Assembly: GCA_001604215.1 (NCBI GenBank)
Contig: LVAX01000092.1
Location: 72,985 to 136,984 of the forward strand
Source of the DNA: Clostridiales bacterium Firm_18
GTDB lineage: Bacteria; Bacillota; Clostridia; Monoglobales; Firm-18
Reading direction: 5' to 3'
Length of the DNA stretch: 64,000 nucleotides
Positions 60,315 to 60,663 of the stretch are shown here, in pieces (position 1 is the first letter of the stretch; every line of letters begins with the position of its first letter). The notes below the pieces were generated by a model. It ran no database searches and was not told the DNA's origin. It saw only the letters and a program-made list of their open reading frames with translations. A program made the position numbers and the translations under genes.

Positions 60315-60343
60315 CTCACTTCCGAGGTGGTGTCAAGCAAATG

Positions 60344-60387
60344 AACCGTCTCCCCTGCTTTTCAAAACCGTCCCCCTGCTTTTCAAG
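60344..60387 (+). repeat. Tandem 22-bp direct repeat carrying the AACCGTC(C/T)CCC motif
   Basis: AACCGTCTCCCCTGCTTTTCAA followed by AACCGTCCCCCTGCTTTTCAAG. Confidence 0.85.
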
Positions 60388-60532
60388 GCAACAATAAAGA
60401 ACCCCACCTTGCATCAAAGGTGAGGTACTGATGTGTCTAATGACGCTAATTTTGATACAATCGGCGTAAGTCGGGACTTATTACGACGAAAGAATTGACT
60501 AACACCGAAAGTATATTGGAAGATAAGAAAGC

Positions 60533-60592
60533 GAGACAACAGAACCGTCCCATTGTCTTACATTAAAGACAATAGAACCGTCCCCTTGTCTT
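60533..60592 (+). repeat. Two 19-bp direct repeats (period 33) embedded in three alternative hairpins
   Basis: AGAACCGTCCCATTGTCTT (60541-60559) and AGAACCGTCCCCTTGTCTT (60574-60592). The arms AGACAA/TTGTCT occur four times, including the palindrome ATTGTCTT-ACATTA-AAGACAAT (60552-60573). Confidence 0.85.
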
Positions 60593-60604
60593 CTTATGAG
60601 CCAT
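60563..60604 (-). CDS. 13-codon mini-ORF (MAHKKTRGRFYCL) with a strong SD, a possible leader peptide
   Basis: AAGGGGGA lies 9 nt before the ATG. The ORF runs through the first hairpin and stops in the central palindrome. Translated by hand. Confidence 0.25.
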   Translation of the reverse strand: MAHKKTRGRFYCL

Positions 60605-60663
60605 TTTACACCATCCCCCTTTTCAATAAATGAATAATGCTTATACCTTCTTTGTTCTATGAC

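Follow-up and report, generated by a model that had tools for sequence, protein, structure and literature searches.

A motif array in a Clostridiales genome that probably represents solo TIRtron terminal hairpins at a recombination joint

The repeated motifs found in the 349-nt gap at positions 60315-60663 of the window (the whole 64,000-nt stretch of DNA analyzed) are, as a whole, very probably best explained as solo copies of the terminal-hairpin repeat of a TIRtron, clustered at a recombination joint. As read from its sequence, this TIRtron is a 249-aa RAYT-like Y1/HUH gene of the TIRYT type, with a putative C-terminal HTH tail, flanked by inverted hairpins. The array is neither a leader or attenuator nor a replicon iteron set.

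The gap is bordered by an HNH_2 gene (60664-61620, minus strand; Pfam 7.1e-14) and by a 136-aa ORF (59904-60314, minus strand). The four motif copies listed in the first-pass annotation were confirmed at 60344, 60366, 60543 and 60576, all on the plus strand and in a single orientation; on the gene strand they read GGG(A/G)(G)ACGGTT. The pattern AACCGTCYCC was matched three times in the window versus 0.07 expected, a number reached in 0 of 100 shuffles, and the fourth copy reads ...CCCA. No extra copy with 0 or 1 mismatch was found elsewhere in the 64 kb. The look-alike ACCATCCCCC at 60610 was rejected as a fifth copy, being the RBS of a 361-aa gene belonging to the RM island, and this RBS is conserved in genomes without the hairpins. 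The reported spacings of 22 and 33 bp were correct, the first pair forming a 21/22-bp tandem repeat and the second pair lying inside the loops of two hairpins with AAGACAA/TTGTCTT arms, 33 bp apart.

Read along the minus strand, the array begins with the hairpin A unit (60566-60596), made up of TAAG and the arm AAGACAA (60592-60586), the loop GGGGACGGTTCTA (60585-60573) and the arm TTGTCTT (60572-60566). It is followed by hairpin A' (60534-60559, minus strand), with the arms AAGACAA and TTGTCT enclosing the loop TGGGACGGTTCTG, and by a conserved filler (60401-60533, minus strand), of which a segment of about 85-115 nt (60431-60515) has paralogues elsewhere in the genome. The further hairpin described previously is real and lies at 60401-60426; it is terminator-like, with a T-run behind it. 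Two tandem units of 5' arm plus core then occupy 60335-60386 on the minus strand (TTGAAAAGCAGGGGGACGGTT at 60386-60366 and TTGAAAAGCAGGGGAGACGGTT at 60365-60344), the second being weakly closed into a hairpin by TTGCTT (60340-60335). These tandem units are an AAGCA/TGCTT stem variant of the hairpin repeat, and a closed copy with an AAAGCA stem was found in the window's genome at C34:15820. The 3' arm end is straddled by the sequence TTGACA (60331-60336, minus strand), which occupies the -35-box position of the transposase promoter in intact elements.

With respect to folding, the central hairpin formed by arms 2 and 3 was present as claimed and belongs to the minimum-energy fold of the gene strand, in which the two adjacent hairpins form a single long hairpin (-13.8 kcal/mol, z -5.9 as DNA; -34.4 kcal/mol, z -7.6 as RNA). 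The alternative-hairpin layout arises because two palindromic units stand side by side. When the 22-bp repeat region was folded as single-stranded DNA, its fold was no more stable than those of shuffled sequences (z +0.6).

The SD and the 13-codon ORF (MAHKKTRGRFYCL, 60563-60604, minus strand) exist in the sequence as previously noted, and their origin could be traced by alignment. The segment 60597-60663 (minus strand) is the end of a horizontally shared type I RM/HNH island and consists of the spacer after the HNH stop codon, the RBS AAAGGGGGA and the first 8 nt, ATGGCTCA (60604-60597), of the 361-aa gene, the remainder of which is missing here. An identical form of the HNH protein is encoded on many public contigs, and the 361-aa gene was the next gene in 10 of 10 examined. 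Ten contigs (L169-L178) aligned to the window from 60597 upward with 98.1-99.9% identity, and homology ended there in all ten; these contigs read ATGGCTCA/GATTAAT... into the 361-aa gene (the slash marking the end of homology). In the alignment AAAGGGGGATGGTGTAAAATGGCTCA corresponds to the RBS and first 8 nt of that gene, after which the window reads TAAGAAGACAAGGGGACGG, the beginning of hairpin A, where the other genomes read GATTAAT.... Because homology to the 361-aa gene stops at 60597 and hairpin A stands thereafter, the 13-codon ORF is an accidental stump of the truncated gene, whose start codon is read into hairpin A until the first stop. At 8 further A-type copies in this genome, neither the start nor the peptide is conserved.

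These alignments bear directly on the suggestion that the array is a leader-peptide attenuator or RNA switch, in which translation of the 13-codon ORF would select among 1:2, 2:3 and 3:4 hairpins and so control the downstream gene. Such a role would be in keeping with the very stable RNA fold of the gene strand and with a strong SD and ATG ahead of the hairpins, but we consider it extremely improbable, as that SD and ATG are the start of the 361-aa gene truncated here and both are absent ahead of the hairpin pair in five other genomic contexts. The hairpins are, in addition, a dispersed repeat, and a separate terminator-like hairpin and 220 nt intervene before the next ORF, itself an orphan fragment. 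No Rfam family was matched when 59500-61500 was scanned with Rfam 15, the best scores of 18-19 bits being at chance level against family thresholds of 60-85.

The repeat is found well beyond the window. The 27-nt hairpin AAGACAA-GGGGACGGTTCT-A-TTGTCTT recurs on five other contigs of the window's genome, in which 32 occurrences of GGGACGGTT were counted where 8.4 would be expected, about 20 of them in hairpin form. The exact core is present in 19 copies in this genome, which is 74% complete, and in 0-25 copies in relatives, and the repeats are dispersed as monomers, dimers or clusters. Two classes of element end could be distinguished: A-ends, in which the hairpin is followed by TTGACAATTAAAAGG..., and B-ends, in which an inverted hairpin overlaps a stop codon. 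In the window's genome (G000) the two kinds of end enclose units of 280-415 bp, which are internally deleted copies of a single gene. Hairpin A has exactly the sequence of the element's A-end hairpin, and no B-end partner of the array was found within the window even when 2 mismatches were allowed. LytTR or response-regulator direct-repeat sites upstream of a promoter had also been entertained for the array and were abandoned when the repeat was recognized as the end of an element.

The MAG, 74% complete, yielded fragments and deletion copies of the transposase gene but no intact one. A public contig of the same species (L195) carries an intact 249-aa gene (P0117) with a B-end hairpin that is intact and an A-end hairpin that is degenerate in its 5' arm. 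The gene is likewise intact in relatives (for example L026/L036, 248 aa), and inverted repeats also flank it in L039, L040 and L041. On L192 an IS-interrupted copy of the transposase gene lies 2.4 kb from the hairpin array. The earlier proposal of protein-binding sites of a mobile element is close to correct, in that the units are terminal hairpins of a Y1-transposase element, while replicon iterons and integrase arm-type sites, which had also been named, are not what they are. The motif is indeed dispersed, an outcome that the first-pass annotation had set against its own proposal, but its copies have a clear positional meaning, marking element ends and junctions.

The 248-aa transposase of L026/L036 matched Pfam Y1_Tnp at 5.7e-16 and NCBIfam REP_Tyr_transpos with 74.8 bits, just under the cutoff of 80. 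Both the HUH motif (NHIHLL) and the sequence RYIHQNP are conserved among the transposase proteins, and the sole PDB match of their profile was 4ER8, E. coli TnpA_REP (3.9e-6). A C-terminal tail of about 100 aa with the HTH-like end GLSIRQISRLTGISKGIVERI was present in all members; when compared with HTH profiles this tail gave several weak, sub-threshold matches (HTH_23, HTH_7, HTH_38, HTH_3 and others). The TIRYT or 'RayT-like' family to which these proteins belong comprises at least 7,400 protein clusters.

Gene and repeat were found together in a census of 61 genomes of the order, in which kin are not independent but three families show the association. Every one of the 12 gene-bearing genomes had 2 or more copies of RGGGACGGTTCT. 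Four or more copies were counted in 13 genomes, 11 of them gene-bearing; as a control, the reversed pattern gave 0-2 copies across the same 61 genomes. A broader scan for GGGACGGTT-N10-30-GGGACGGTT identified tandem arrays at 120 or more loci in Clostridia, Bacilli, Actinomycetota and other phyla, part of the matches in high-GC genomes probably being due to chance, and the gene was present on 12 of 120 8-kb loci. The 12-nt core GGGGACGGTTCT is constant across lineages, whereas the arms vary by lineage yet stay complementary. Stems of at least 7 bp were formed by 12.7% of copies versus 1.0% for arms paired across copies, and 142 distinct stem sequences were recorded. The layout of several 5' arm plus core units followed by a single 3' arm recurs at many of the 120 array loci and, in other genera, immediately ahead of TIRYT genes. 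Tandem half-units, including the 22-bp repeat of the window, are a trait of the family. No report of the core sequence in this context was found in the literature, the only matches being unrelated primers.

Spacing between direct copies across the family showed two modes, at 21-22 and 33-35 bp, and the spacings of 22 and 33 bp in the window fall on them. Helical phasing, as proposed for the array, is not needed for explaining them, because the two modes equal the lengths of a half-unit and of a full hairpin plus spacer. The transposase promoter of intact elements has, in at least 8 lineages, a -35-like TTGACA that is overlapped by the hairpin's 3' arm. The combination of a hairpin and a TTGACA-like box was seen at the A-ends of G000 and in L036, L037, L038, L039, L040, L041, L102 and L109, the box being TTTACA or TTGACC in two cases.

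This arrangement, together with the clustered spacings, is what would be expected if the repeats were duplex, iteron-like operator sites to which the HTH tail of the transposase binds, regulating the adjacent promoter and the 136-aa ORF, perhaps with autoregulation. The window retains the hairpin and a TTGACA that faces the 136-aa ORF, 17 nt ahead of its start codon. We nevertheless judge an operator function here to be quite unlikely. No acceptable -10 follows the TTGACA at 60336-60331 and no promoter was called, the spacing modes are those of the repeat units themselves, and the ORF that would be regulated is an orphan gene fragment. It gave no Pfam or NCBIfam match and no homologue in 60 relatives; it is related to the C-terminal region of polymorphic-toxin-like proteins, among which P0002 has the DPTGL junction motif at the aligned position.

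To return to solo TIRtron ends at a recombination joint, comparison among strains provided the evidence for the joint. At least 23 public contigs carry a gene for a protein identical to that of the 136-aa ORF. Seven of those contigs, when aligned, were 99.6-99.96% identical to the window from about 60596 downward. This conserved segment (block 2), which includes the 136-aa ORF, holds the hairpins, the toxin fragment, a blaI-like gene, a DUF4825 gene, a 400-aa gene, an HTH gene and arr; on L192 it continues past tRNA-Arg (55017-55093) into sigG, sigE and spoIIGA. The filler at 60401-60533 is invariant in all public block-2 copies. As the same conserved block is present, the contigs represent strains of one species at the same chromosomal anchor.

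What lies to the left of block 2 differed from strain to strain, with at least six different neighbors among the seven aligned contigs, although some public contigs may share samples and the contexts are therefore not all independent. The RM island is the left neighbor in the window and in L181/L191 (100% identical over 8.5 kb), L191 repeating the window's own junction in a separate assembly. Its place is taken by a 121-aa ORF, GDSL lipase, fucosidase and IS200 in L182/L193, by a PGA_cap gene and the IS-interrupted TIRtron in L183/L192, by an HTH_19 gene in L184/L185/L190, by a chitobiase-like gene whose end runs into the hairpin in L186, and by a third hairpin in L187. In L168/L194 hairpin A is absent, and the stump of an amidase-like gene abuts hairpin A', which provides the first base of the conserved block. 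Three of the left neighbors involve truncated genes. A nested-deletion model for this variation was unsupported, the left flanks of the strains not overlapping.

Each junction was located at N/TAAGAAGACAAGG, or at TAAGACAATGG in the case of A', to within one or two nucleotides. The outer foot of hairpin A is the RM-island junction, and five or more different left neighbors join there with the same precision. Hairpin copy number varied among strains (1, 2 or 3), 6 nt of spacer were missing in L184/L185, and the 33 nt of hairpin A (60564-60596) were the sole stretch outside both homology blocks. A flanking A, seen in 7 of 8 junctions, was the only shared target feature; no conserved 4-5-nt target was found at the junctions beyond it, and no target duplication was seen. 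The heptamer TGGCTCA (reverse complement TGAGCCA) recurs beside three copies. A check for breakpoints at hairpin feet gave no support at a second locus, C86, where the strain breakpoint was 135 nt from the hairpin and, on the other side, public contigs start inside the hairpin.

Evidence for movement was also obtained at a second position in block 2. In L184 and L185 a TIRtron-derived insert, made up of two tandem B-type hairpins and element interior, lies inside the DUF4825 gene, beginning after ...TTTGAACA; the corresponding site in the window is empty (GAACA/TAAATT, near 57779) and the gene is intact. In another genus (G005 versus G014) homology blocks likewise start at hairpin feet, and the hairpin module is duplicated. 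The TIRtron family has moved recently in the species of the window.

The same junctions could in principle have formed around hairpins that are merely passive, the neighbors having been brought in by ordinary recombination or by island insertion near tRNA-Arg, or having been created as assembly chimeras at a repeat. The locus does lie in an accessory island beside tRNA-Arg, a common site of gene flux, and short-repeat homologous recombination or insertion beside a passive hairpin could give identical junctions; repeats also break assemblies, and many contigs end in the hairpin. We regard passive hairpins as unlikely, given that at least six unrelated neighbors stop no more than one or two nucleotides from a hairpin foot and that three of these truncate genes. 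With regard to chimeras, the 27-nt hairpin is presumably shorter than the k-mers of the assemblers named in the contig titles, and both the window junction and the insertion at 57779 were each recovered in two assemblies.

For a TIRtron end lying at a joint, a mechanism can be outlined. The transposase would probably recognize the loop of the folded single-stranded hairpin, the 12-mer duplex by way of its HTH, or both. It would then probably cut near the hairpin foot or within the G-run, a position suggested because partial units end after GGGG or GGGGAC and because the copies in L195 and C12 differ from a point inside the loop onward. Joining of the cut end to new DNA, if repeated or if accompanied by adjacent deletions from the end, might yield both the variable neighbors and an array of 1-3 copies. 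Any influence on nearby genes would be a by-product, for instance of a strong structure at the 3' end of the RM transcript or of a leftover -35 box ahead of the 136-aa ORF. The variable neighbors themselves could reflect joining driven by the transposase, recombination between short homologies or the targeted insertion of other DNA. A bolder proposal, which we offer tentatively and hold to be somewhat improbable, is that the TIRYT hairpin foot is an active site-specific joint, at which the enzyme reads the loop GGGGACGGTTCT, invariant across phyla, and a fixed array seeds a strain-variable cargo region. The enzyme would cut at such a joint time after time and link the end to arbitrary DNA through one-ended transposition, adjacent deletion or capture, with defense islands and other cargo being picked up and trimmed.

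For the annotation of the window, a false regulatory element and a false small ORF are removed, and the RM/HNH island is shown as truncated at a transposon-end junction. The locus also constitutes a natural experiment, in which a single conserved anchor is combined with at least six alternative neighbors, variable hairpin copy number, a filled and an empty insertion site and an intact enzyme sequence from the same population. Its features give direct predictions of the positions at which the enzyme would bind and cut. RAYT/TIRYT enzymes are very common in Clostridia and are mostly annotated just as "transposase". To our knowledge, no activity has been shown for the TIRYT branch. Were the active-joint proposal true, it would give the large TIRYT or 'RayT-like' family a concrete activity and a natural assay system.

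Compared with described systems, the element fits a known kind, the TIRtron with its TIRYT, but has a motif one base removed from the published one and adds the presentation of that motif in a hairpin loop. TIRtrons and TIRYTs (TIR-associated tyrosine transposases) were defined by Di Nocera, De Gregorio and Rocco (2013; PMC3733652), and TIR families are described in that paper as monomers, dimers and clusters with the motif GGGGWSAS. Shared with them are a RAYT-like Y1/HUH gene with inverted repeats, the occurrence of these repeats elsewhere as single copies, dimers and clusters, a G-rich core resembling GGGGWSAS, and a C-terminal extension, which is here of putative HTH type with sub-threshold profile matches. 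In contrast to the published motif, the core here is GGGGACGG(TTCT), with G rather than A at position 7 (7 of 8 positions in agreement); more distant homologues have GGGGACGT as their core. Also unlike published TIRtrons, the core is presented here in a hairpin loop with covarying stems, often after tandem half-units.

Of 26 described TIRYT examples, 20 were placed by Quentin et al. (2018; PMC6006769) in TnpA_Y1 subclass 2.1, with HTH or DnaA_C-like tails in subclass 2.1.2. The same paper states that no REP-like sequences were found next to subclass 2.1 genes, whereas in the present family the repeats adjoin the gene. Polymorphism of junctions and insertions at the level of strains, as observed here, is not reported in the available portions of PMC3733652 and PMC6006769. 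Group 1 RAYTs have been placed in Clostridia by Bertels et al. (2017).

The second system to be compared is that of REP/BIME and REPIN-RAYT, represented by E. coli TnpA_REP/YafM (Bertels and Rainey; Nunvar; Ton-Hoang). As in that system, short extragenic palindromes go with a Y1 transposase, usually encoded by a single-copy gene that has inverted copies of the palindrome on either side, and dimers fold into long hairpins; its 4ER8 structure is the only solved relative of the enzyme. Unlike classical REPs, the present repeats have no GTAG tag at the foot, which reads (T)AAGACAA, and CGTC was present only inside the loop on the complementary strand; they number in the tens rather than the hundreds. 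Recognition appears to be based on the loop and not on the stem together with a tag, the enzyme exceeds its REP counterpart by about 100 aa and has a putative HTH tail, and the element is still transposon-like, with deletion derivatives and a new insertion in a gene.

With members of the IS200/IS605 group (IS608, ISDra2) the element shares a Y1 HUH enzyme, hairpin ends, the absence of target duplication and a common orientation of clustered copies. Its ends, however, are inverted and not direct on one strand, and its 249-aa protein belongs to a different clade from the IS200/IS605 TnpA proteins of about 130-150 aa. A true IS200 TnpA encoded in L193 is unrelated in sequence to the TIRYT enzyme.

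Internally deleted TIRtrons, elements in which a RAYT-like Y1/HUH transposase gene lies between inverted hairpin ends (A-end and B-end), were found in arrays of a single shared orientation on two contigs of the window's genome (C12:1-5351 and C36:11180-13640). The spacing between these copies is 0.17-2.6 kb and is occupied by unrelated genes, namely a toxin tip with an immunity-like gene, MntA/HepT-like genes and TrkA/TrkH. When a deletion copy on C12 was compared with the intact 249-aa transposase gene of locus L195, the flank of the B-end was common to both while the flank of the A-end was different. 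With respect to the DUF4825 gene (window 57514-58929, minus strand), which is intact in the window, a TIRtron-derived insert at a site corresponding to about 57779 splits it in two public assemblies (L184:5091-5262 and the tail of L185), and the insert starts with two B-type hairpins in tandem. Comparison of two further genomes, G014 (L037) and G005 (L036), revealed a duplicated module in G014 upstream of the transposase gene, consisting of the tandem hairpin, the terminator and 60 nt; the duplication also takes in a piece of about 190 nt of a neighbouring gene, and the hairpin feet form the block edges.

Of the nine A-type copies, three (in the window at 60603-60597, on C12 at about 2715 and on C36 at about 13283) have a common heptamer 2-4 nt outside the hairpin foot, which reads TGGCTCA or, in reverse complement, TGAGCCA. 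This recurrence is far above chance, and could reflect a target preference or microhomology at the junction.

The 136-aa ORF (window 59904-60314, minus strand) aligned to two longer metagenomic proteins, P0002 and P0003, in the region immediately past their DPTGL motif, after which its sequence departs from theirs and reaches an early stop. The ORF thus resembles the C-terminal part of a polymorphic toxin, left behind as an orphan fragment. In G005 (L026) and on C12, TIRYT hairpins likewise have RHS-type toxin tips as neighbours. The hsdR-HNH module (window 60597-64000; L169-L178) is found at 98-99.9% identity across many public contigs, which indicates that this RM/defence island has spread recently. 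Among the carriers of a near-identical module is the complete 3.0-Mb genome CP121687.1, where it is followed by a 361-aa gene and an IS66.

Between hairpin A' and the terminator lies a segment of about 85-115 nt (window 60400-60515, plus strand) with two intergenic paralogues elsewhere in the same genome (C78:72454-72534 and C20:51200-51243; 79-84% identity). One lies downstream of nrdG, is preceded by a promoter-like box, TGTTATAAT, and contains a long hairpin with arms ATACAACCGGCGTTAGTC/GACTTACGCCGATTGTAT. No conserved reading frame was observed in the segment and its paralogues, and no Rfam match to the segment was found.

More distant transposase homologues (41-44% identity) were found in G051, G028 and G011 (L042, L043 and L044). 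These are flanked by an inverted repeat of another kind, non-palindromic (...ATTGGGGACGTGCC...), partial copies of which are here too arranged in tandem, and which has only a GGGGACG core in common with the hairpin repeat.
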